IMG/VR virus record: IMGVR_UViG_3300005611_000007
Location: 62,921-126,920 of that record
Strand: one strand, 5' to 3'
Length of the DNA stretch: 64,000 bases
DNA from: a virus
Taxonomy: Duplodnaviria > Caudoviricetes
This document shows positions 7,605-63,127 of the stretch, one piece after another. Position numbers and translations under genes: made by a program. The stretch's first letter is position 1, and each line of letters begins with the position of its first letter. A model generated the notes under the pieces. That model searched no databases and had not been told where the DNA came from. It was given only the letters and a program-made list of their open reading frames with translations.

Positions 7605-8690
7605 TCAATCTAAGTCTAATGGATTTTTTGGCTTTTCAATTTTACCTTGTAGAGCCATTTTAAAATGTTTCAAGCTTTTATGGGCGCTTTTCATTAATCT
7701 ACCTTTATCGATAGAAGATTTTTGTTTATTATATACTGTCATAAATTGTTGTGCATCTCTACTAGAAACTTGTGATGACGTACCGTCTAAGAAGTTTACT
7801 TTATTACCATTTAGAGAAATTGCTTTCCTCATTTGCATAACAAAGTTAGAATCAGAGGATACATCATCTTCTTTCTTTGGCCGTCCACGAGCTTCATCAA
7901 TTTCTACTTCTTCTTTCATCGCTTGTTTTGTAGCAGTTGCATACATAACATCTTTCCAACGATCGCCATAACGTTTTTTCAGATCACCACTGCTTTTCTT
8001 CATACCTTTAACAATTTCTTCACGCTTCTTCATCTGAACATCAGACATTTCATGAAGCGGTGACAATGAATCTCTGACTTGCGCTTTCAATTTAGGACCA
8101 AAAGTTGTCCCCTTTTCCCATTCCGCGTATGCTTGAGAAGGACTAATTTTTCTAACTTTCATCAAAGAATGAATTTTAGAAACTGCCTTTTTTACTGCTG
8201 AATCATGAGCGAGTTTAAGTGTTTTTGGTTCTTCATCAAGGTCAACTTCTTCTTTTGCCATCATTGTACGAGCATCGTCCATTGATGGTTTAGTGTCGAT
8301 CTTGTCAGGTTTATCACTTAACTCATCATCTTTCTTTTTCTTTTTCTTTTTGTCGTTCTTACCGTCGCCATCCATATCGTTCTTTTGAGCATCGGTCATT
8401 TCATCTTCGTCATCTTCCATATCATCATCGTCATTATCATCGTTCTCTTTGACCTTGGTGGCTTCTTTCATTGCCTTCATTACGGCTTTACGACGATTGT
8501 GTAGATACTCATCTGAACTATCTACATCACCATCGTTATCAATGTCTTTGTCTTTACGATCAGCATGAGAACCCTTTAATGCCTTCGCATCTACAGGATC
8601 TAACGCTTCTTTCTTGCTTTTACCCGTCATAATTTCTGTGACGGCTTTAACAAGATCATCCGGGCTATTAAAGAGATTCTTAGGGAACAT
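7605..8690 (-). CDS. highly charged prohead-core/internal-head-like protein
   Basis: D/K-rich; DIDNDGDVDSSDEYL motif; KEEVDLDE and KEEVEIDE linkers; start re-called at MFPK. Confidence 0.55.
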   Translation of the reverse strand: MFPKNLFNSPDDLVKAVTEIMTGKSKKEALDPVDAKALKGSHADRKDKDIDNDGDVDSSDEYLHNRRKAVMKAMKEATKVKENDDNDDDDMEDDEDEMTDAQKNDMDGDGKNDKKKKKKKDDELSDKPDKIDTKPSMDDARTMMAKEEVDLDEEPKTLKLAHDSAVKKAVSKIHSLMKVRKISPSQAYAEWEKGTTFGPKLKAQVRDSLSPLHEMSDVQMKKREEIVKGMKKSSGDLKKRYGDRWKDVMYATATKQAMKEEVEIDEARGRPKKEDDVSSDSNFVMQMRKAISLNGNKVNFLDGTSSQVSSRDAQQFMTVYNKQKSSIDKGRLMKSAHKSLKHFKMALQGKIEKPKNPLDLD

Positions 8691-9275: not shown

Positions 9276-9582
9276 ATTTTTCTAACCTTAATACTAGTTT
9301 TGTTGAACCTTTTATCAATCTGTGAAATACCATTTCTGGTATATAAAATTCATCACCTACATGCATTTCAGTTGGTAACTCATCTTCATATTGTAATGAC
9401 CAACCTTCACCTTCTAATACATCTATGTGTCTATTCTCTTTGTCACGGTGCCAAACTAAATCATCTTCATTTGGGTTATCAAATGTTCTAATATCACCAT
9501 TATCAGTATATATTACCAAAAGAAGGATCCTCCGCCACTTAACCCAAGGCTCTTTGCATAATAAGGAAGACGACAAGCCCAA
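9238..9582 (-). CDS. small cupin-like protein (true start probably near 9510)
   Basis: WHRD...EGEGW...HRLIKG. Confidence 0.55.
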   Translation of the reverse strand: MGLSSSLLCKEPWVKWRRILLLVIYTDNGDIRTFDNPNEDDLVWHRDKENRHIDVLEGEGWSLQYEDELPTEMHVGDEFYIPEMVFHRLIKGSTKLVLRLEKYEKSGKHYKKSV

Positions 9583-10046
9583 TACGCCGCTGTTGTTTTA
9601 TCATTTTGCATATGACATCTATGTCTTGCTGCAAATGACTTTCGTGCTCCAGGATCATTGAGTTTTACCTTTAGCCCTGTTGTATCTCCCCAAGTCACTT
9701 TCTTAATATTCTTAGTTGATGGATCTCTCACATAAACATAATACTTCTTAGGTCCACCTCTTTTTGGTTTGTTTAATTCTGGTGTCTCTTCTTCATCTAT
9801 CATAGGAAAGTCTAGAGGAACATCAACACCATCTACTTCAGCAAAATTTCCAATATCACTATTAAGAAAATCTTCGTCAAGAGGTGTAAGTTCTAGACCC
9901 TCTTCTTCATATCTTCTACGAACTTCATTAATTACTTCAAAGTATTTTTCTGAACCATATCTAAAAATAGATTCGGCAAAAGGAATATCTTTTGCAATAT
10001 GATACTTAATAGATTCTGAAATTAAATGATTCTTAAACTTCACCAT
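9513..10046 (-). CDS. conserved T4-like hypothetical with capsid-targeting-like N-terminus
   Basis: MVKFKNHLISE; ARKSFAARHRC...AYWAC. Confidence 0.6.
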   Translation of the reverse strand: MVKFKNHLISESIKYHIAKDIPFAESIFRYGSEKYFEVINEVRRRYEEEGLELTPLDEDFLNSDIGNFAEVDGVDVPLDFPMIDEEETPELNKPKRGGPKKYYVYVRDPSTKNIKKVTWGDTTGLKVKLNDPGARKSFAARHRCHMQNDKTTAAYWACRLPYYAKSLGLSGGGSFFW

Positions 10047-13000
10047 CTTCCTCCTCCTCATCTACTAAAACTGAAGGATGCAAAGCAAATCCTGCTTGAG
10101 TCTTAATACCTAGATCTTTAGCGAAATAGGTAACACCAATACCAGAAGTCGTTGCCATCTCAAAAGATTCATTTAAGTCTTTTTTAAATAAGTTTTCAAA
10201 CTCTTCATTTCTACTTGTCATTCTATTCTTTGTACGGGCATCTCTAAGTCTTGCTGCATCCATTTCGCGATCATGTTTAGTTTTCAGTGCCTCTTTCTCG
10301 CTAGTGTGCCGTTGTTTAACCGTATCCATTGCATCACCTTCTTTTATTCTCTTACCTTCATCATCATACTTACCAGATTTCTTTTTAGCAATAGCAATAG
10401 CAGCTTGTTGCGCCCATGACTTTGCTTCGTTCTGTATAGAGAACTTCTCATCAATGGATAGTTCTTCTTTACGAACATTCTTCCACAAATCTGCATCAGC
10501 AGTTGTTCTTGTCTTGCCGCCGGTGATAAATGAATTCACACGAGCATATGCCCATTGTTGTGGTGTAGTACCTGGACGATGACCTGTACGCCACGCCGCC
10601 ATACCTCTATCATATACTTTCTTTAGAATACTATAAGAGATACCAGACTTCTCTGCTTTCTTTTTCAACCCTTCTAAAGATTTCTCTTCAAGATACATAT
10701 ATTGCACAAACTCTTCATTGATGCCTCTAACAGACTTAGCTTGACTAATCCAGTTTTGTGCAAATTTATTACGTGGTTCTTGTTTCATCCATGCAGATAT
10801 TTTTTTGTAAACAGAGGTAGAAGCGGCTTCAAAATTAGAACCTTCTGAATTATCTACAATAAAGAATTTGGATTTAAAACTATTCTGAAACTTACCTAAA
10901 TTGTTCTGTACAGACTTCCACATTTTTGTCACTTTTTCATCAGGAAGACTTCTATCTCGTTCACGATTTCTTTTAAGTGCTGTATCTTCATCTGTGTTGA
11001 CAAAAATCATAGCAGTTTCATAACCTATAGCTTCTAGTTGTTCTTTTTGTTTTTGAATTTTTTGATAATCTTTACCAGTACCATCAATTACTAAACCAAG
11101 TCTACCATTTAGATATAAAGATTGTTGTTTTTTAGTAAGAGCCTTAGCGCGATCTCGTATAGTTTGTCCTTTTGTTGAGTAGATATCTTCTGGAGTTGTA
11201 TTCAATCCAGCATTTTTTAAACCTAATTCAAAAATTGGATCCGAGTTTACTAATTTGAAACCTAACCCTACTAAACCAGTTCTACCTACAATAAACGATT
11301 TACCAGAACCAGGACCACCTGCTAAAAATACTGCTTTGAATATACCAGGATCGTTTAAACCTTCATCAAGTTCATATGATTCGTATTTAATCACGGGGCT
11401 TGTTGTAGTGAAATTTTTCTTTCTCATAATAGTTTTATGAACTACATCTAGTGTGCCATCTTTATCTACTTTAATAGCAATAGGTAAATTCAAATCTTTT
11501 TGAATATCTTTTAATACTACTTCAGCATTAGGATATTTTTTTATATTGACTGCTTTCTTTTTAGCAATCTTTTTAAATAACCCCTGTAGTTCAGACACTT
11601 TTATTTCAGGTTTATTTCTATCATCGTTCATTCTATCAGCGAAGTGACGTGAAAATGAAATGTCTACACCAAACTTATCTAACAATCTATCACCAAATTT
11701 TTCTAAGTCAGAAAGCTGATTGGCTGTGACCGTTTCACCAAACATCTGCTTATACTTCTTAGTATGCTTAGATGGTTTGGTTTCAGCACCAAAATCGCCG
11801 GGAGCTGGCTTATATGCCGCTGGATTATCATCATCCATTTTAGCACTTTTTTTGAAATGCGTATCTCTAGCATCCTTTGTAGACTTTTTCAAACCAGAAT
11901 AATATTTCTTAGGTTGAGTTCCTTCTTTGTCTTTAACATCAGGATCTTGGGCGACTTCTTCCCATTTAACTTCTTTCTTCTTAAAGTCAGATAGTTTCTT
12001 TAATTGTTTCTTTCCAACATGAGCAATTTTCCATCCACTTTTAGCTAGACTATTTGCATAATCTCTAACTTCAGGTGCTTTTAACATTTTAACTTGGTCA
12101 GTTTTTGGTCCTGCTTTTATCTTTACTGTCATGTAATTTGGTTTATTGGTTACAGGACGAATTTCTACAGTATCTGCACCTTTCTTTAACATAATAGAAC
12201 TTATTTCATCTAATTGTTCTAGAATGTCTAAATCGATTTGTTCTTCTAATGGCGCACCAGGATTTTGCGCTCTTAGACGGAACGCTTTTACAATATCTGC
12301 CCTTTCTACTCTCTCAATATCATGAATGTTTTCTTCTGGATTTCTAATAACTTTACGAAGCTTGCTACGAATAGTAGAGGCACTAGGTGCATCCATATAG
12401 ACCGTAGGCATACCTTCTACGTCTACTTTGAAATAAAGTTCATTGATATAGTTATCAAACTGTTCATTTTTGTTAAGATTACGAAATCTTTCTTGTTCTT
12501 TTTTTACAATTTTTGGAAGCAGTCTTTTTGCTATTGTAGAAACTAATGGTAGTTTCTTTGCTACTAATCTATCAATACCAATCTTTTCTGAAGGTGATAG
12601 TGTTCTATATTGTTTGCCTTTCTCACCAGCAACTCTTTTCTTTAATAATAAGATTGCTGCTTTTCTTGATCTTTTAACTAACTGCGCTCTTCTTGCCATT
12701 CTACGTAGAGCAATTTTTCTTTTTCTTGCAATAATAGGTGCAAGTCGTCTCATCTGTAAACGTTTTTTCATTCTTTGTTGTAATGTTAAAGGTTTTCTTT
12801 CCTCTGACATTAAATCGTCATTACATGTAATAGGACCTTCTACGGACCAATCAATATCATCTTGCCAATCGTCATCCATTATTTCATCAAATAATTCATC
12901 CAGTTCTTCATCGGAAATATCTTCCCATTCTTCTTCAACAGACTCCATTACAGACCTAATAGTGTCATAAACTTTCTTCTTATCAGTTTCTTTTAGTTTG

Positions 13001-13482
13001 GATGGCATCCCTTGTTTGAATGTGTCATAATCGCCTGCTTGTGCAATACCTCGAAGTTTAGAAGCAGACATACCAGCAACACCTTCAGCGTCTGGATCTC
13101 GTTCTCCAGCAGACACAACTTCAATCTTATCAAAGTTGTAATCTTTACCGTTATATTTTGCTAAAAATGATTTGAACTCAGGAACACGATCACTACCAGC
13201 AACCAGAATAACTTCTGTGTGTCCCATCTTCTCTAGTTCTTGCATCACCTGGATGATAGTCTTGGCAGAAGACTTAGTGACGGCTTTGCCAAACGACTTC
13301 TTGGCAATATCAATTTTCGTATTGTATGGAAGAGGATCTTTCTTAGCGTTCTGTGTGTGGCTAAGAAATATATGTGGCATCGCCCCACGACGTTTAGCCT
13401 CGCTGTAAACTTTATCAGCAAGTTTTTCATGTCCGATTGTTGGGGGATTCATGCGCCCAAAAGCGAAAACTGTCTTACTCAT
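10033..13482 (-). CDS. 1149-aa multidomain polyprotein: HIGH-type nucleotidyltransferase, basic helical region, nuclease-like domain, P-loop kinase (Zeta/PNK-like), small domains
   Basis: FGRMNPPTIGH and GMSASKLR; FSRHFADRMND; LAGGPGSGKS...VIDGT...RNRER. Confidence 0.8.
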   Translation of the reverse strand: MSKTVFAFGRMNPPTIGHEKLADKVYSEAKRRGAMPHIFLSHTQNAKKDPLPYNTKIDIAKKSFGKAVTKSSAKTIIQVMQELEKMGHTEVILVAGSDRVPEFKSFLAKYNGKDYNFDKIEVVSAGERDPDAEGVAGMSASKLRGIAQAGDYDTFKQGMPSKLKETDKKKVYDTIRSVMESVEEEWEDISDEELDELFDEIMDDDWQDDIDWSVEGPITCNDDLMSEERKPLTLQQRMKKRLQMRRLAPIIARKRKIALRRMARRAQLVKRSRKAAILLLKKRVAGEKGKQYRTLSPSEKIGIDRLVAKKLPLVSTIAKRLLPKIVKKEQERFRNLNKNEQFDNYINELYFKVDVEGMPTVYMDAPSASTIRSKLRKVIRNPEENIHDIERVERADIVKAFRLRAQNPGAPLEEQIDLDILEQLDEISSIMLKKGADTVEIRPVTNKPNYMTVKIKAGPKTDQVKMLKAPEVRDYANSLAKSGWKIAHVGKKQLKKLSDFKKKEVKWEEVAQDPDVKDKEGTQPKKYYSGLKKSTKDARDTHFKKSAKMDDDNPAAYKPAPGDFGAETKPSKHTKKYKQMFGETVTANQLSDLEKFGDRLLDKFGVDISFSRHFADRMNDDRNKPEIKVSELQGLFKKIAKKKAVNIKKYPNAEVVLKDIQKDLNLPIAIKVDKDGTLDVVHKTIMRKKNFTTTSPVIKYESYELDEGLNDPGIFKAVFLAGGPGSGKSFIVGRTGLVGLGFKLVNSDPIFELGLKNAGLNTTPEDIYSTKGQTIRDRAKALTKKQQSLYLNGRLGLVIDGTGKDYQKIQKQKEQLEAIGYETAMIFVNTDEDTALKRNRERDRSLPDEKVTKMWKSVQNNLGKFQNSFKSKFFIVDNSEGSNFEAASTSVYKKISAWMKQEPRNKFAQNWISQAKSVRGINEEFVQYMYLEEKSLEGLKKKAEKSGISYSILKKVYDRGMAAWRTGHRPGTTPQQWAYARVNSFITGGKTRTTADADLWKNVRKEELSIDEKFSIQNEAKSWAQQAAIAIAKKKSGKYDDEGKRIKEGDAMDTVKQRHTSEKEALKTKHDREMDAARLRDARTKNRMTSRNEEFENLFKKDLNESFEMATTSGIGVTYFAKDLGIKTQAGFALHPSVLVDEEEEDGEV

Positions 13483-13530: not shown

Positions 13531-13842
13531 TCAGACGTTGAAACTTTCTCCACATCCACACTGGGCTTTACTATTCGGATTGACCACCTTTAGATAAGAA
13601 CCACCGAGTTCTGTTACATAATCTACAGTAGAACCAATAACGTAAAACTCAGCCAGATTGTCAAGTACAATAATGTCATCTATCAACACGCCTTCTTCTA
13701 CAGTATCAGCGAAGTCCCATTTGTATTGAAACCCACTACAACCGCCGCTGTCTACCGATAAATGAATGTACTTTTTATTGTGTGTCTTTTTCATGTTCGT
13801 CAGATACGTCTTCGCTGACTCTGTTATCTGAACTGGGTACAT
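13531..13842 (-). CDS. iscA: IscA/HesB A-type Fe-S cluster carrier
   Basis: GGCSGFQY ... CGCGESF. Confidence 0.9.
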   Translation of the reverse strand: MYPVQITESAKTYLTNMKKTHNKKYIHLSVDSGGCSGFQYKWDFADTVEEGVLIDDIIVLDNLAEFYVIGSTVDYVTELGGSYLKVVNPNSKAQCGCGESFNV

Positions 13843-13914: not shown

Positions 13915-15156
13915 TTACTTCTGCCATCCTTTTATCACATCCGCTGAAAAGTTTGCTCTACTAAACTCCATACGATCTACAAGTTTCACGGCACCACCTT
14001 CTAATCGATCAATTGCAACATAACCTTCTTGATTGGTCACTTTAAATCCTGTGGATGTTCGTAAAAATGTTGCCAGTGAACTTGTTTGATTCAGTTTATT
14101 GACAACCATTTCCTTTGCCTTTGTCAGAAGAATCACAACATCATAGATAGTATACAGATTTTTTTGATGGTTGTCAAAATAAATCATCAACTTTTTCATC
14201 TTTTCCAATTGATCTTGTTGACCTTTTGGTGACTTTTTCTTTGATGCTTCTTTCTCATAGTATTCTCTAAAATATTTTACTAATTCGTTTACATGAGCCC
14301 GAGAACTAACAATAGATTTGCCAGCACGTACCTTGGAGTTATTGAATGCTTTGAGACGAATTAGAAACTCGTCCTCTCCAGCAATATCGTTTAGTGCAGC
14401 CGCTGGTAATTTTTGGAATAATTTACCAGCCTGAGATAGAATACTGGTCAGTTGTTTTGTCTCTGTCTCTGTGAAAGTGGCGGTACCAGATACGTCTTTA
14501 TATGTAGCATCGTCCATCCACACTGAAGGCACAGATTTCATCTTATTGACAATACCTTTACCAAAAGAAGATTTCATACTCTGGATTGTCTTGCCAGTAT
14601 ATGTAGTATGCCAGACAATACCAATCTTTGCTCTACGAATTGTCTTTGCTAGAGGAGTGCCCATAGGAACTGCATAGACGATAGTGTTTGGTTGGAATGT
14701 AAGATAGTCTTGACCTTCAATCTTTTCTTTTGATAGGTCTTCACTGGTAAACATCAAATCGCCTTGATAGACACCAGACTTGATACCTAACTTGGAGAAT
14801 TCTGTAAAGGCGACAACGAACTTACTGGTAAGTTCAGCAGACATGCCTTCTTTCTTGATATCGTCAACAGACTTAAACATCTGCGGATTGATATTGAATA
14901 GACCTTTTTTCGCTACAAAGAACTTACCATCTTCTGGATCCACACCTGCAAAAATGGCAGGAGCTCCATCCCACTTAGTTGTAATGTTAATAGATTTAGA
15001 AGAGGAACCACTAAGCATATCACGAACGCTACGGAGAAAAAGAATAGCTCGACGTGTTCCAGTAACCCCTTCATTAAAGACGAGATCTTCGATATGCTCC
15101 AAGTGAACATTTTTGCCCTCTTTGGATTCTGTTAGATATTGTTTAAAATTAATCAT
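13915..15156 (-). CDS. ATP-dependent ligase-fold (covalent nucleotidyltransferase) protein, possible RNA ligase
   Basis: TTKWDG (motif I), YQGDLM (III), QEGYV (IV), VKLVDR (V); N-terminus MINFKQYLTE. Confidence 0.6.
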   Translation of the reverse strand: MINFKQYLTESKEGKNVHLEHIEDLVFNEGVTGTRRAILFLRSVRDMLSGSSSKSINITTKWDGAPAIFAGVDPEDGKFFVAKKGLFNINPQMFKSVDDIKKEGMSAELTSKFVVAFTEFSKLGIKSGVYQGDLMFTSEDLSKEKIEGQDYLTFQPNTIVYAVPMGTPLAKTIRRAKIGIVWHTTYTGKTIQSMKSSFGKGIVNKMKSVPSVWMDDATYKDVSGTATFTETETKQLTSILSQAGKLFQKLPAAALNDIAGEDEFLIRLKAFNNSKVRAGKSIVSSRAHVNELVKYFREYYEKEASKKKSPKGQQDQLEKMKKLMIYFDNHQKNLYTIYDVVILLTKAKEMVVNKLNQTSSLATFLRTSTGFKVTNQEGYVAIDRLEGGAVKLVDRMEFSRANFSADVIKGWQK

Positions 15157-15906
15157 TTAAAAAACAATCATATCTCTAGATTTAGTAGGTTTATCAGTAA
15201 CTACAAGTCTACCAGCAGAATCTCCTTTTGAAGGAGATTTACCATAAATTTTAGGTATCCCATTTTTGTCAGAGGCTTCTGGATCAAACATTTGATCCAC
15301 GCGTCTTGCCCTCAATCTAAAGAATAAATCTTTACTTTCAGAGTATTTGTTAGCCTCTATTGCTTTTCCGTTTATTGTTAATTTGCCATTTTTAAAGGAA
15401 CCTTTAACATCCATAGGACCTATATACATATAGTCTATAGGACCTCCCATAGCTTCATTACCTATAACAAGTAATTTCTTATCTTTGTCGTTTAACTTAG
15501 CAAAAGTATCAGGAACCTTATCACCAACTTTTAAACCTTTTTTCTTATGATTATCATAAGCCGCTCTAAAAAATCTAGCTCCAATACCAGGAATAATTTC
15601 TTCAATTCCTCGAAGACCACCTCCCGCTAAAGATGGTGCTGAAGGACCTTTCATAGAAAAATTTAACACTCCTGAAGAAGTATATACCTTTACATCCGTA
15701 TAAGGTTCTGAACCAGATCTTTGTCTACCAGAAAACTTTTCCGCTTTTATGACATTTTTAACAGTATCTTCTTTTGTTATTAAATCAAAAGGTTTTTCAT
15801 TATTTTGTTTGAAAGACGTATTTATTAATTCTACAAATGCGTTTTCTTGTCTCTCAGCAGATTGTCCTGCTTCTTGTAGGTCTAGAAACTGCTTAAATCT
15901 AATCAT
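15157..15906 (-). CDS. PD-(D/E)xK-like nuclease candidate with capsid-targeting-like N-terminus
   Basis: MIRFKQFLDLQE|AGQSAERQE...PYTDVKV...FSMKG; start re-called. Confidence 0.45.
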   Translation of the reverse strand: MIRFKQFLDLQEAGQSAERQENAFVELINTSFKQNNEKPFDLITKEDTVKNVIKAEKFSGRQRSGSEPYTDVKVYTSSGVLNFSMKGPSAPSLAGGGLRGIEEIIPGIGARFFRAAYDNHKKKGLKVGDKVPDTFAKLNDKDKKLLVIGNEAMGGPIDYMYIGPMDVKGSFKNGKLTINGKAIEANKYSESKDLFFRLRARRVDQMFDPEASDKNGIPKIYGKSPSKGDSAGRLVVTDKPTKSRDMIVF

Positions 15907-16339
15907 TGATAACCCCGTAGTGTCCTGTTTCGTCCATTGAATAGACAATTCGCTTTATACCATATTTATAAAGACAAGACATACAACCAATGCAAGGCTT
16001 ACTATTACCCCAAATCCATCCTTCACTATTACCAGATGGACGCTTTGCTCTTGCAACATAAAGAGTCATTCCAGCCAATTCTTTCTTTGTAGGATCTAAA
16101 TCACTACCAACCGCCTTCAAACCATTATATACAGCATTCGTTTCAGCGTGCCAATAGATCGCTTCATCGTTCTTAGCATGATTTGCTTGAAACGTGTGGG
16201 ACTTGTACATATTCATACCATAAGAGATAATTTTGTTCTTATAAACAAGAGAGGCAGCCAAACGACTGCCTCCCGTTGCATCTAGATCCCTAGCCATAAT
16301 GAACAAGTTGTTCAGAAACTTTAGGTCACGATCGCTCAT
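15899..16339 (-). CDS. Zn-dependent cytidine/dCMP deaminase-family protein
   Basis: HAE...PCIGC. Confidence 0.8.
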   Translation of the reverse strand: MSDRDLKFLNNLFIMARDLDATGGSRLAASLVYKNKIISYGMNMYKSHTFQANHAKNDEAIYWHAETNAVYNGLKAVGSDLDPTKKELAGMTLYVARAKRPSGNSEGWIWGNSKPCIGCMSCLYKYGIKRIVYSMDETGHYGVIND

Positions 16340-47180: not shown

Positions 47181-47825
47181 TTAAAGTTTCTTCAGGAAAT
47201 CCTCGAAGATACGCAATTTTGTTTGTTCAAGTTCAGTTTTATTGGCTTTCTTGATATCATATTGAGAACGCTCCACAAATCTTTGTGTCCACTTCCCACC
47301 TTCCATAATCCATTCAACCCCTTCCATAATACCTTGAACAAATGCATCTGGCGCGGAAGGATCTGCAACGATGTCGGCTGCGGTAGCAAGATAAAAATCT
47401 TTTTGTACCTCATTGACACCATTTTTCTTTTTAAGAGTACCCATACCTCTTGATGAAACACCAATAGTGGCACCCTCTTTGATTAAGTTTTTTACGATAT
47501 TACCGTAAGGTGAATCCATAATCTTCGCTTTACCCATGAAGTTATCTCCATCTTGGTAAAGTTCTTTAATCATATGTGATACTCTTTCAAGATTAATGGT
47601 TGGTCCACTGGGATGACCTAGTTCACCAAATGCACGATTCTTCATTACATATTCTTTGTTATATCTATTTATTTCTCTTTCAAGAATATCTGTAGGATAG
47701 ATACGACCATTACGGTTCTGTTTGTTGGCCTGCAAAAAGATGCCTTCAATATAAAAATCTTTCTCACCATTCTCATTGGCTTCGGTCACATAACCGATGT
47801 CAAGTACTTCCGTGATGAGTTTCAT
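47181..47825 (-). CDS. 21: prohead protease gp21
   Basis: MKLITE, NRNGRIYP, GELGHP, GVSSRG, DIVADPS. Confidence 0.95.
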   Translation of the reverse strand: MKLITEVLDIGYVTEANENGEKDFYIEGIFLQANKQNRNGRIYPTDILEREINRYNKEYVMKNRAFGELGHPSGPTINLERVSHMIKELYQDGDNFMGKAKIMDSPYGNIVKNLIKEGATIGVSSRGMGTLKKKNGVNEVQKDFYLATAADIVADPSAPDAFVQGIMEGVEWIMEGGKWTQRFVERSQYDIKKANKTELEQTKLRIFEDFLKKL

Positions 47826-48189: not shown

Positions 48190-48911
48190 ACTGTCCTCTT
48201 TGCAAATGTAAGCATATTTTTATAGGATTTTTCATCTTTCATCATTTCACTTTCCATACGCTTACGATTTTCCGGATTTAATTCCTTGAGAACAGCATTG
48301 AATGCAGCAGCATCTTCTTTTGTTACCTTTACTGACTTGCCGTTATCTAATTTAATTGTTCCTGCTTTTACTGCTTCATCAATAAACTCAACTTCTTCTT
48401 TCATCAATTTGTCATAATTCTTTTTTAGATATTGATTTGCCGAATCCATATCTTTAAATGTTTTTGCAATTTTTCCAGAGCTAGTCATCACATGTTTACC
48501 GTCTCGATCAGATGAAACATACGGCTTTATTTTTGCTTCATCAAGGTCAACTTCTTCTTTTACAGAACCTGACTTGAAGTCACCCTGTCTCTTATCACCT
48601 TTACGAAGAGATGTTTTTGTAATTTTCTCTCTAAACTTAGCAAATTTTACGTCACCAGAAGTACCTTGTTTTACTACTGGTTCACCAGGATGTTCAGCAC
48701 CTTTATGTTTGTTGTGTGATGTCTTAGCTACATGTTGATCTTCTGGAGCAGCTGGATGATTGCTTACTTCAACAGAGTGTAAATCAACAAACTCAATCTC
48801 ACCATCAGATCTAGGCTGATATTCTAGTGCTTCTTCGTCGTCATCTGGATCGACAACATAATCGTCAGCGCCAGCTTCTTGGATCTTTCTGAGTTGTTTA
48901 AGCGTTTTCAT
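48186..48911 (-). CDS. prohead core-like protein with capsid-targeting-like N-terminus
   Basis: MKTLKQLRKIQE; KEEVDLDE and KEEVEFIDE linkers; start re-called. Confidence 0.55.
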   Translation of the reverse strand: MKTLKQLRKIQEAGADDYVVDPDDDEEALEYQPRSDGEIEFVDLHSVEVSNHPAAPEDQHVAKTSHNKHKGAEHPGEPVVKQGTSGDVKFAKFREKITKTSLRKGDKRQGDFKSGSVKEEVDLDEAKIKPYVSSDRDGKHVMTSSGKIAKTFKDMDSANQYLKKNYDKLMKEEVEFIDEAVKAGTIKLDNGKSVKVTKEDAAAFNAVLKELNPENRKRMESEMMKDEKSYKNMLTFAKRTV

Positions 48912-49118: not shown

Positions 49119-50690
49119 TTAAGTAAAATAAGGTACTTTATAACTAGTTCCACCAATATTAAACGTTAAATAACCGTTTGGATTGGCTACTATACTATCA
49201 TCTGGAGTTAGTGTTCCTAATGATGTTGTTACATCGCCTGGTGTTGCTGTAATTGTAACATTGGCTGAAGAAAATTTACTAGCAATACTATTTGTTACAG
49301 TAGTAGCAAAGTTAGGATCATCTCCTAAAGCTGCTGCTAACTCATTTAGTGTATCTAGAGTGCTTGGTGCAGAGTCTACTAAATTTGTAATTTCGGTTCT
49401 AACAAATGCTGTAGTAGCGATTTGAGTTGTATTGGTCGCCGCCGCTGCTGTAGGAGCTGCTGGAGTTCCTGTAAATGTTGGTGATGCTATATTTGCTTTA
49501 GTCGCAATATAAGAGTTGGTATTGGCAAGAGTTGTTTGGAATACAGTATTTGTTACATATGTGCCACCTACCGTTGATTCTGTTTGTACTGCTGTTACAC
49601 TACCACCCTCTACAGTAGTGTACCAACCACTAGAGTTAGCGAAAAGAGTAGAGTTATTACCAACATATATTGTGCCGCCAGAAATATAAAGATCTCTAAA
49701 TCTCTTTGAAGAAGTACCCAAGTCATAAGTTACATCTTGGTCTGGTATAATATGTTGAGTTGTAATTGTAGTAGTAAAGTTATTACTAGAACCACTAGCA
49801 GTATTTGCTTCCCACTTACCTTTAGTGGCATTATATACTAATGCTTGACCGTCTGATGGACTTTTAACAGTATTATAGTCCACATCATCTAGACGATGTA
49901 ACCAGACTTCACCAGATCCAGAAGATCCACCACTTCTACTAGATAATGCTAATCTTGTTACTTGGGCACTTATAGAATCTCTAAAGTTTTTTAAGCCTTC
50001 TTCTAGTTCTTGTTTAAGAGGTTTTAGATCAACAAGTCTACCATCTGCCCCCGGCGGTCCGATTGGCCCTGGGATCCCTTGTTCGCCTCTATCACCTTTA
50101 TCGCCTCTGGGTCCCACAGGTCCGATATCGCCTTTTTCACCTGGGACTCCTTTTTCTCCTTTTTCTCCTTTTTCGCCCTGTGGTCCTTGAATCCCTTGAA
50201 TACCGACTGGTCCTCTAGCGCCCACATCGCCTTTATCGCCTTTATCACCTTTATCTCCTTTCGGTCCTTGTGGACCCGGAATACCTTGTTCACCTTGAGG
50301 TCCTACGGGACCGACTGGACCTTGTTCACCAAGATCCCCTTTTGGTCCTCTACCGCCTCTTGGTCCAACAACTTCACCAACTTCTAGTTGCTCGCCATCA
50401 GAGAAATTTAAGATTAAACGATTTTCGAATATTCCTGCTTTGAGTATAGCATTGCCAGCGTCACCTTTATCGCCTTTGTCTCCTTTCTCACCTTTAGGAC
50501 CAACGGCTTCTACAATGACAGACTCAGCAGCATCACCACGATCACCCTTTGGACCTTGCGGTCCAGGTGGTCCTTCGATAGTTTTGATCTCTTCTATCTC
50601 TTCACGTAGTTCTTTTACGTTTTTAGAGATTTCTTGTTTAGCAAGTTTTAGAGATGCTGCTAATAACTTGGCGTTTTCTATGTCTTTCAT
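49119..50690 (-). CDS. collagen-repeat fibre-like protein
   Basis: Long Gly-X-Y runs; C-terminal SPTFTGTPAAP...LDTLNELAAALGDDPNFATT fibre motif. Confidence 0.8.
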   Translation of the reverse strand: MKDIENAKLLAASLKLAKQEISKNVKELREEIEEIKTIEGPPGPQGPKGDRGDAAESVIVEAVGPKGEKGDKGDKGDAGNAILKAGIFENRLILNFSDGEQLEVGEVVGPRGGRGPKGDLGEQGPVGPVGPQGEQGIPGPQGPKGDKGDKGDKGDVGARGPVGIQGIQGPQGEKGEKGEKGVPGEKGDIGPVGPRGDKGDRGEQGIPGPIGPPGADGRLVDLKPLKQELEEGLKNFRDSISAQVTRLALSSRSGGSSGSGEVWLHRLDDVDYNTVKSPSDGQALVYNATKGKWEANTASGSSNNFTTTITTQHIIPDQDVTYDLGTSSKRFRDLYISGGTIYVGNNSTLFANSSGWYTTVEGGSVTAVQTESTVGGTYVTNTVFQTTLANTNSYIATKANIASPTFTGTPAAPTAAAATNTTQIATTAFVRTEITNLVDSAPSTLDTLNELAAALGDDPNFATTVTNSIASKFSSANVTITATPGDVTTSLGTLTPDDSIVANPNGYLTFNIGGTSYKVPYFT

Positions 50691-62419: not shown

Positions 62420-63127
62420 TTATTCTCCAGACTCTTCAGTTCGTTTTACGATAGAGAAACGAATCTTTCTATCATTATCCGTCGTTTCCATTAATTCTTT
62501 ATAATATTCACTTTTACCAATAGGTTCAATGAATAACTGTTCTCTGCGATCATATGCAAACTGTTGAAAAGGACCAAAACGATCTACATAATGTAGAAAT
62601 AATTGACATTGCCAATCTGTTGTTTTAGGTGGATTAAACTTTTCTCGCCAATGCGGTACGTCACATCCACGATAAATCATTGCTTCTTTAGGTTGGACAG
62701 AAACAGGCATTCTTACTGTTAAGTCATCTGGATCTGCATACCAGATAGGCCAGTCAAACTTCCCAGATTGTCCTAGATTGATTGTAACAGAGATTTCACA
62801 AGAAGGTCTATCAGAATGATAGTGTAATTCTTCACCAGGACCATATACACGCATGTAGGTATATGTGGGGAAGAGTTTTAAACCTGTAAGTTCTTCCATT
62901 TTAGGAAGACAGTCAACCATTACATACTCACACATAGGTTGTCCATACCAAGCCTTAGAGTTGATGGGACATTGTGAGTCGTTTAGTTTATTTTCAGTAT
63001 CTTCTTTTGCTAACTTAACATATTCATCTGAGATAATTTTAGCGACATCGGCGTCTACAAAGTCATCTACTGCTAGGTATTTCTTCTTTTGAAAATAATA
63101 CACGCCAGCACTATTACGAAGTTTCAT
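62420..63127 (-). CDS. 2OG-Fe(II) oxygenase-like protein
   Basis: HSDRPSCEIS...HWRE...QLFLHYV. Confidence 0.8.
   Translation of the reverse strand: MKLRNSAGVYYFQKKKYLAVDDFVDADVAKIISDEYVKLAKEDTENKLNDSQCPINSKAWYGQPMCEYVMVDCLPKMEELTGLKLFPTYTYMRVYGPGEELHYHSDRPSCEISVTINLGQSGKFDWPIWYADPDDLTVRMPVSVQPKEAMIYRGCDVPHWREKFNPPKTTDWQCQLFLHYVDRFGPFQQFAYDRREQLFIEPIGKSEYYKELMETTDNDRKIRFSIVKRTEESGE

Follow-up and report, generated by a model that had tools for sequence, protein, structure and literature searches.

The locus and the P0001 gene

The window analysed here is a stretch of 64,000 nucleotides (positions 62,921 to 126,920 of the IMG/VR record IMGVR_UViG_3300005611_000007) from a 126,920-bp contig of a marine T4-like myovirus, with Pelagibacter phage HTVC008M and Methylophilales phage Melnitz, both Kyanoviridae, as nearest isolates. 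It contains the gene P0001, whose 1149-amino acid (aa) product is, judged from its sequence, probably a head-cargo polyprotein of the T4 internal protein (IP) kind with its modules fused in frame. Nearly all genes of the window are encoded on the minus strand. The window includes head and tail genes (gp21-type prohead protease, scaffold, major capsid protein, portal, sheath, and terminase) and replication genes (DNA polymerase, UvsX, and gp41-type helicase). The P0001 gene is located downstream of the gp41-type helicase gene, and its homologues in HTVC008M, Melnitz, P-SSM4, S-CREM1, and S-SM1 are placed alike. In the JGI annotation, homologues are referred to as 'predicted kinase/nicotinic acid mononucleotide adenylyltransferase'. 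A preliminary description of this DNA had given a single open reading frame (ORF) of 1149 aa at 10033-13482 on the minus strand and a gp21 gene at 47181-47825; both were recovered at these positions.

10033..13482 including the stop codon, minus strand: P0001 gene, 1149-aa mosaic protein with more than 4500 homologues of 631-2011 aa
13519..13526, minus strand: TATAAATA, T4-type late promoter motif, 36 nt upstream of the P0001 ATG and followed by a GGAG ribosome-binding site
47181..47825, minus strand: gp21-type prohead protease, the presumed processing enzyme (phrog_207, 1.5e-80)

The motif TATAAATA is present in 11 copies in the window, all of them intergenic and on the coding (minus) strand, at listed distances of 12-45 nt upstream of the next start codon. 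Eight copies precede structural genes, including those for the major capsid protein, the scaffold, and the portal, and three lie in the P0001 cluster. Genome-wide, 20 copies were counted on the minus strand and three on the plus strand. For annotation of this phage, the motif marks late promoters cleanly. From the copy in front of the P0001 start codon, and from the position of the motif before structural genes elsewhere, late transcription of P0001 is predicted.

Modules of the P0001 protein

An AlphaFold2 model of P0001 built on 80 homologues had a mean predicted local distance difference test score (pLDDT) of 63.5, with folded blocks at residues 1-180, 233-336, 437-485, 523-565, 588-681, 711-918, 934-1006, and 1052-1086, and low-confidence segments between them. 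The blocks named in the preliminary description (nucleotidyltransferase, K/R-rich helix, FSRHFADR domain, and kinase) were found at the coordinates given there, and a DUF5824 module was confirmed as well. Its count of roughly ten separate effectors did not hold, as the model shows about eight folded blocks, with enzyme folds in only three of them. The order along the chain is as follows (a slash marks a predicted cut).

12943..13482, minus strand: module 1, residues 1-180, HIGH-type nucleotidyltransferase (NMNAT/NaMNAT-like); phrog_3041 2.4e-89, fold match to NaMNAT 8aih
12787..12942, minus strand: acidic spacer, residues 181-232, isoelectric point (pI) about 4, with LDE196/LFDEIMDDD (degenerate cassette) and LMSEE228
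12475..12786, minus strand: module 2, residues 233-336, K/R-rich helical block in the model; pI of fragment 229-348, 11.9
12439..12459, minus strand: junction cassette FDNYINE/LYF, residues 342-348, the only exact [FYW]xx[FYW][IL]xE match in P0001
11734..12438, minus strand: three small modules, residues 349-583, separated by PLEE414, ILE422, LDE426, and MFGE583
11386..11733, minus strand: FSRHFADR domain, residues 584-699, putative RelE/RegB-like fold; model pLDDT 94.6, phrog_23027 and phrog_14518
11362..11385, minus strand: junction YESYELDE/GLNDP, residues 700-707, a cassette with a one-residue insertion directly before the kinase
10726..11361, minus strand: P-loop hydroxyl kinase of the Pnk/Zeta/AAA_33 group, residues 708-919, Walker A GGPGSGKS; AAA_33 2.7e-8, Zeta_toxin 3.4e-7
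10684..10722, minus strand: junction cassette INE923/EFVQYMYLEE933/K, residues 921-933, with two candidate cuts that would free an acidic decapeptide
10465..10683, minus strand: DUF5824 module, residues 934-1006 (Pfam match at 916-998, 2.9e-20)
10168..10458, minus strand: C-terminal helical modules with candidate sites SIDE1012/KF, RIKE1048/G, and NEEFENLFKKDLNE1105/SF
10036..10167, minus strand: acidic C-terminal tail, residues 1106-1149, pI 4.1, ending DEEEEDGEV

The transferase motifs TIGH and GMSASKLR of module 1 are intact and invariant; the Pfam CTP_transf_like match to this module was weak (0.014). The three small modules correspond to LYFKVD (349-414), a beta/alpha insert (437-485) that is present in the closest relatives only, and YYSGL...KPAPGD (506-583). 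In the FSRHFADR module, residues H613, R617, R622, K683, R687, and K688 are invariant. Pfam gave no match to it, Foldseek returned nothing below an E-value of 0.1, and a PDB sequence search with the whole of P0001 produced only a chance KaiA match. An exhaustive structural scan yielded a coherent list of middling scores, with RelE at Z 6.2 (77 aa), T4 RegB at Z 5.9 (111 residues), and HigB, YafQ, and ParE at 4.6-5.5, and on the basis of the modelled fold the earlier designation as nuclease-like is plausible. The kinase matched T4 Pnk (1ly1, TMt 0.75), Clostridium thermocellum Pnkp (0.69-0.71), and also zeta toxin and adenylate kinases. Its invariant D748 is located 20 residues past the Walker lysine, which we take to be the same placing as in the hydroxyl-kinase group.

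Cutting at the candidate positions (E196, E228, E348, E414/E426, E583, E707, E923/E933, E1012, E1048, and E1105) would give folded products that are predicted to be basic (pI 9.2-11.9), with the exceptions of the transferase (6.1) and the LYFKVD piece 349-414 (6.8). The predicted spacers 197-228, 415-426, and 924-933 and the tail 1106-1149 all have a pI of about 4.1.

Candidate cleavage sites in the linkers

The preliminary description had read P0001 as a polyprotein with domains delimited by 12 sites of the (I/L)xE type. All 12 are situated in linkers with pLDDT below 50 between folded blocks; three of them (LMSEE, MFGE, and IQNE) are not (I/L)xE. A simple enrichment of the pattern was not observed, with 13 matches in P0001 versus 11.3 ± 3.1 expected from shuffles, and a density of 11.3 per 1000 residues that is below the window mean of 12.6 (scaffold protein, 45). 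Ten of the 13 matches fall into linkers, which hold 30% of the residues (binomial p = 7e-4). Because the linkers are E-rich (Glu 13% versus 5%), the composition-aware expectation is raised to 5.7 ± 2.1 linker sites, and with this correction the association of sites with domain boundaries barely stands (p = 0.04). The linker signal is weak within P0001 and strong only across the family.

The junction cassette across the family

An alignment of 14 homologues revealed a mosaic in which modules are inserted, deleted, and reordered; DUF5824, for example, precedes the RelE-like module in P0048 and P0056 and follows the kinase in P0001. The comparison of domain order in homologues that the preliminary description had proposed showed shuffled modules with a cassette at their joints. 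In 120 homologues, [FYW]xx[FYW][IL]xE was found 177 times versus 6.7 times in shuffles (26-fold). The cassette precedes 17 different downstream contexts, and five different upstream contexts were found before the kinase and four before DUF5824. A logo of 24 non-redundant instances reads [LV][ND]E-[AE]-F-E-x-[YF]-L-x-E, after which the next module begins. In several relatives (P0018, P0031, P0034, P0066, and P0104), the chain also includes domains of the HD/HD_4 (RelA/SpoT-type hydrolase) or Cu/Zn superoxide dismutase type, which widen the putative cargo repertoire.

That the pattern of sites arose by chance, in an E/K-rich protein whose acidic linkers display (I/L)xE between domains, would agree with a total count equal to the shuffle expectation, with the p = 0.04 left after composition correction, and with the three listed sites that break the rule. 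We consider this explanation highly improbable. It is already contradicted by the family-wide cassette, which exceeds shuffles 26-fold, is found in 17 contexts, and reappears at the N-terminus of unrelated stand-alone proteins as their leader, and by the anchored kinase starts described below.

The capsid-targeting sequence (CTS) of phage T4 is a textbook mechanism and a biotechnology tool; to our knowledge, it is known essentially from T-even phages, with one cargo per gene. The T4 CTS MKTYQEFIAE is taken off by one gp21 cut next to the sequence (PMC8442874). Its residues 4 and 7 act in targeting and residues 8 and 10 in processing, and Asp in place of Glu retains targeting and blocks processing (PMC9026906). 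By sequence comparison, the cassette shares its skeleton with this peptide.

The residues preceding module starts were also read independently of any motif, at positions P1-P3. Before the kinase start, P1 is Glu in 48 of 54 fused and 91 of 92 stand-alone contexts (139/146) and never Asp, P3 is Leu or Ile (or Val) in 53/54 and 91/92, respectively (144/146), and P2 varies freely. Before DUF5824, P1 is Glu in 23 and P3 is Leu or Ile in 24 of 25 contexts, and before the LYFKVD module both positions conform in 13 of 13. An (L/I)xE at the boundary of the mature part, as in the IP/Alt class, is thus conserved in more than 90% of cases for three module starts and less so for the RelE-like one. A Glu-specific protease with Leu/Ile at P3 fits these data better than a mere acidic helix, because Asp keeps targeting in T4 and blocks processing.

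These data also bear on the idea that P0001 is packed and ejected uncut as a 130-kDa chain, like a polyvalent protein, with the cassettes serving as core-binding peptides or flexible spacers. The aromatic targeting positions 4 and 7 are the best-conserved part of the cassette, the joints of P0001 are partly degenerate at the cutting positions, and T4 packs large fusions behind the CTS (PMC9026906). Uncut packaging nevertheless appears unlikely to us. The occupation of P1 before the kinase by Glu and never by Asp, with Leu or Ile at P3 and P2 free, points to a protease, since the T4 Asp variant targets but is not processed; moreover, the sites lie in exposed disordered linkers, within a prohead holding a Glu-specific protease. 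A complex prediction of gp21 with P0001 residues 325-365 scored 0.00 and was counted neither for nor against cleavage.

Leaders of stand-alone relatives

A search with kinase residues 708-919, excluding the junction, identified 113 homologues of stand-alone size with a G.NDP.IFKA start. The leader in front of this start comprises exactly ten residues in 67 of the 113, and all 67 fit M..Ar..Ar[ILV].E (Ar, aromatic), as in MKTFKYYLNE/GINDP and MLSFSQFINE/G; the remainder have mostly 12-16-residue variants or a bare MINE/G. Stand-alone RelE-like (FSRHFADR) modules start with the same leader (MKTFREYIAE/N, MITFKEFITE/K). A weight matrix derived from the N-terminal leaders of stand-alone kinases failed to score the internal joints (best score 0.5). 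N-terminal leaders carry basic residues at positions 2, 3, and 5, where internal cassettes have acidic ones, and common to both is the skeleton F-x-x-[FY]-[LI]-x-E only.

Homologues of module 1 also occur as a single-domain enzyme, the cyanophage core cytidylyltransferase T4-GC190, with the leaders MKKFSAFLNE/A (SSM1_190) and MKKFSAFLKE/A (PSSM4_155). It was experimentally determined as a virion protein of S-SM1 by mass spectrometry (PMC3037559) and detected in S-CREM2 virions (PMC10665884).

A different explanation would place P0001 in the cytoplasm, as a multi-enzyme fusion for NadR-like NAD salvage or RNA repair, with relic leaders at its joints and a promoter that only times expression. 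The intact catalytic motifs of transferase and kinase, the kinase/adenylyltransferase annotations by JGI, the lack of an N-terminal leader in P0001, and a location of the gene that HTVC008M and Melnitz share, among replication genes and downstream of the gp41-type helicase, are all consistent with such a role. Relics should decay, yet P1 and P3 of the junction are held in more than 90% of 54 distinct fused contexts, and the orthologous single-domain transferase bears a leader and is found in virions. The location among replication genes has its parallel in the ip and alt genes of T4, which are likewise scattered outside the head cluster. On balance, we assign a low probability to a purely cytoplasmic fusion.

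Neighbouring genes and other open reading frames

On the coding strand of the window, the strict skeleton was found five times, twice exactly at an N-terminus, namely in the DUF6267 protein next to P0001 and in a 233-aa ORF. The likely starts of two further genes beside P0001, at 15906 and 10046, are close variants of it.

13915..15156, minus strand: DUF6267 protein, upstream neighbour (Pfam 1.5e-103), N-terminus MINFKQYLTE/S in exact agreement with the CTS pattern
15157..15906, minus strand: upstream neighbour with likely true start MIRFKQFLDLQE/A; late promoter at 15963-15970
9513..10046 (ORF to 10061), minus strand: downstream neighbour with likely start MVKFKNHLISE/S, overlapping the end of the P0001 gene
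58521..59222, minus strand: 233-aa ORF between the genes for the tail sheath stabiliser and terminase, starting MKFLEFINE/N, a near-perfect T4-type capsid-targeting leader

In the DUF6267 protein, the sequence TKWDGAP is similar to motif I (KxDG) of covalent nucleotidyltransferases and ligases. The protein gave no PDB sequence match and fell into no named Atlas cluster, so that the KWDG motif is the sole basis for a ligase-like reading. In PHROG 455, DUF6267 is fused to a cytidylyltransferase. The second upstream neighbour is predicted as an ORF from 15157 to 15948, and translation probably starts from the ATG at 15906, which follows its TATAAATA motif at a distance of about 56 nt. The C-terminal Cys/His module of the downstream neighbour (..RKSFAARHRCH..YWAC..) is found fused to the C-terminus of homologues P0048, P0056, and P0084. 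From its leader, the 233-aa ORF is a candidate packaged protein; it belongs to no Pfam or PHROG family, and ADP-ribosyltransferase motifs noted by eye in its sequence were unsupported. An IscA/HesB-type Fe-S assembly protein (13531-13842, minus strand; PF01521, 1.8e-11) is encoded inside the putative cargo cluster; in its N-terminus MYPVQITE/S, the ITE resembles an Alt site and may be due to chance.

In the capsid protein, LLGE/AAP is present near residue 60, downstream of AFGS. AFGS also precedes the propeptide cut FLTE/A of T4 gp23, although the residue-level alignment of the two is loose.

An identical 26-nt stretch at 8231-8256 and 48536-48561 encodes KEEVDLDE in two genes 40 kb apart, one a 378-aa K/D-rich ORF and the other a 253-aa ORF in the gp67 position, between portal and gp21. 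Linkers of the EEVxLDE/A type recur in both ORFs and in homologue P0024, the C-terminal module of which (KPYVSSD..GKHVM) is also found in the 253-aa ORF. Between the portal and gp67-position genes, an unusual spot in a T4-type head module, a 523-aa protein (49119-50690, minus strand) with collagen-like and tail-fibre-like repeats and many PHROG tail-fibre matches is encoded.

Proposed processing and function

The polyprotein reading of the preliminary description is carried by the late promoter motif, the cassettes, the leaders of stand-alone relatives, and the presence of an orthologue in virions; simple site enrichment and the ten effectors do not form part of it. Under this reading, P0001 would be transcribed late, together with the capsid genes, and the CTS-like peptides at its module joints would bring it into the prohead core. 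There, the gp21-type prohead protease would cleave on the C-terminal side of Glu in the (L/I)xE elements of the joints. The basic folded modules (the NMNAT-like transferase, the K/R helical protein, the RelE/RegB-like domain, the Pnk/Zeta-type kinase, DUF5824, and small helical pieces) would remain with the DNA and the short acidic spacers would be lost, and the modules would finally enter the next host along with the genome. We infer targeting, cleavage, retention, and ejection, as well as every biochemical activity of the modules. As roles of the cargo, NAD handling, RNA-end healing beside the KWDG-motif neighbour, and mRNA cleavage may be envisaged on a speculative basis.

Several observations weigh against a head-cargo polyprotein. 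Within P0001 alone, the linker excess of (I/L)xE is marginal at p = 0.04. One of its roughly nine joints fits the strict skeleton (342-348), and the others contain insertions of one or two residues (YESYELDE, EFVQYMYLEE) or a non-canonical P3 (MFGE, LMSEE). The protein opens straight into the transferase fold (MSKTVFAFGRMNPP), and no in-frame start was found upstream of MSKTVFAFGRMNPP; the N-terminal leader of about ten residues typical of the IP/Alt class is therefore absent at this end and has its counterpart internally, at 342-348. The fused RelE-like junction is less conserved, with Glu at P1 in 29 of 43 contexts. The CTS has been shown to work in T4 at the N-terminus only, and the cyanophage virion detections refer to the single-domain orthologue, for which the authors do not exclude co-purification. 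Finally, cassette-mediated recombination is not visible at the joints of P0001, because the gene shares no repeat of more than 15 nt with other parts of the 127-kb genome.

The cassette [LV][ND]E/AFExYLxE/ might further represent a portable 'address plus double cut' unit, a possibility that we rate at somewhat less than even. If so, fused and separate forms would yield the same mature proteins, and marine T4-like phages could therefore concatenate, swap, and split head-cargo genes freely. A single late gene would then load a changeable first-minute arsenal, active before phage gene expression and composed of an RNase-fold effector, a Pnk/Zeta-type kinase, and an NMNAT-like enzyme, beside a ligase-motif protein. 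Internal copies of the CTS would make targeting multivalent, which would explain loading of a chain that lacks an N-terminal leader.

The T4 CTS, the specificity of gp21, and the detection of the cytidylyltransferase in virions are already published. In the literature, nothing was found that links the CTS and the gp21 rule to the cytidylyltransferase or that describes an internal cassette or modular polyproteins, and cyanophages were found to be tied to the capsid-targeting sequence in a passing mention only. If P0001 is a head-cargo polyprotein, the address-and-cut rule of T4 operates in abundant marine T4-like phages (cyanophages, pelagiphages, and methylophages) and is extended to modular polyproteins. 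This would account for the recurrence of 'metabolic' enzymes, the core cytidylyltransferase among them, in cyanophage virion proteomes, would provide a sequence rule for predicting injected proteins in thousands of uncultured phage genomes, and would point to enzymes that work in the host ahead of phage transcription.

Comparison with known systems

A close parallel is provided by the IP and Alt cargo of T4. Alt is cut at ITE-6 and LTE-619 (PMC5694885), and the sequences of the Alt sites and of FLTE/A in gp23 were confirmed in the T4 record. Both systems belong to T4-type phages with a gp21-type protease, and late transcription, as of the T4 cargo, is predicted for P0001; in the phage analysed here, the gp21-family protease is accompanied by a T4-type head module with genes for the major capsid protein, scaffold, and portal. 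Aromatic residues occupy positions 4 and 7 of the leader or cassette in both cases, with Ile or Leu at 8 and Glu at 10. Mature T4 cargo is basic and what is cut off from it acidic, as predicted for P0001, and the cargo is variable and includes enzymes (Alt). A T4 gene encodes one cargo behind one N-terminal leader, whereas a single chain would here hold up to about eight modules. The P0001 family repeats the leader internally behind an extra [LV][ND]E, P0001 itself lacks an N-terminal one, and its predicted cargo folds are NMNAT-like, Pnk/Zeta-like (kinase), and RelE/RegB-like.

With the T4 prohead core proteins gp22, gp67, and gp68, P0001 shares several (L/I)xE cuts in one chain within the prohead, predicted in the case of P0001, and acidic stretches such as the gp67 tail. 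The scaffolds are degraded to departing peptides, whereas the pieces of P0001 are folded domains that would be expected to stay.

In the giant phages phiKZ, 201phi2-1, and SPN3US, head, ejection, and inner-body proteins are likewise cut after Glu by a T4-related prohead protease, and some of these proteins have extra motif matches within long propeptides, where cleavage was inferred (PMC5694885). Their site is (S/A/G)xE, with a small residue at P3 rather than Leu or Ile, and a portable ten-residue leader and module shuffling are absent from the cited text (PMC5694885).

In polyvalent proteins (Iyer et al. 2017, PMC5512222), unrelated conflict-type domains are strung together into long chains for which delivery alongside DNA is predicted, and P0001, a phage protein of about eight modules with putative delivery, resembles them in this respect. 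None of their signature domains (MuF, own peptidase, ADP-ribosyltransferase, methylase/helicase, and others) was found in P0001 with Pfam, PHROGs, and NCBIfam. P0001 lacks a peptidase domain and, unlike polyvalent proteins, would depend on the capsid maturation protease together with a CTS-type cassette. The polyvalent-protein survey mentions no cyanophages, zeta-type kinases, or NMNAT (PMC5512222).

A NadR-type fusion was considered and not adopted, as a long stretch of the chain separates the two enzymes, which relatives encode in separate genes. The HxGH and ISSTxxR-like motifs of the NMNAT part are present as TIGH and GMSASKLR. The kinase follows 500 residues after the NMNAT-like domain, behind five other modules, and it matches Pnk, Zeta, adenylate kinase, and PSTK best; an N-terminal helix-turn-helix, as in NadR, was not found in P0001.

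A further relative is the cyanophage core cytidylyltransferase T4-GC190. It is homologous to P0001 residues 1-180 (about 49% identity) and is encoded in the same neighbourhood, after gp41 and next to the DUF6267/T4-GC71 gene. T4-GC190 comprises one enzyme (about 385 aa) and bears an N-terminal leader, whereas P0001 is leaderless and carries seven further modules.

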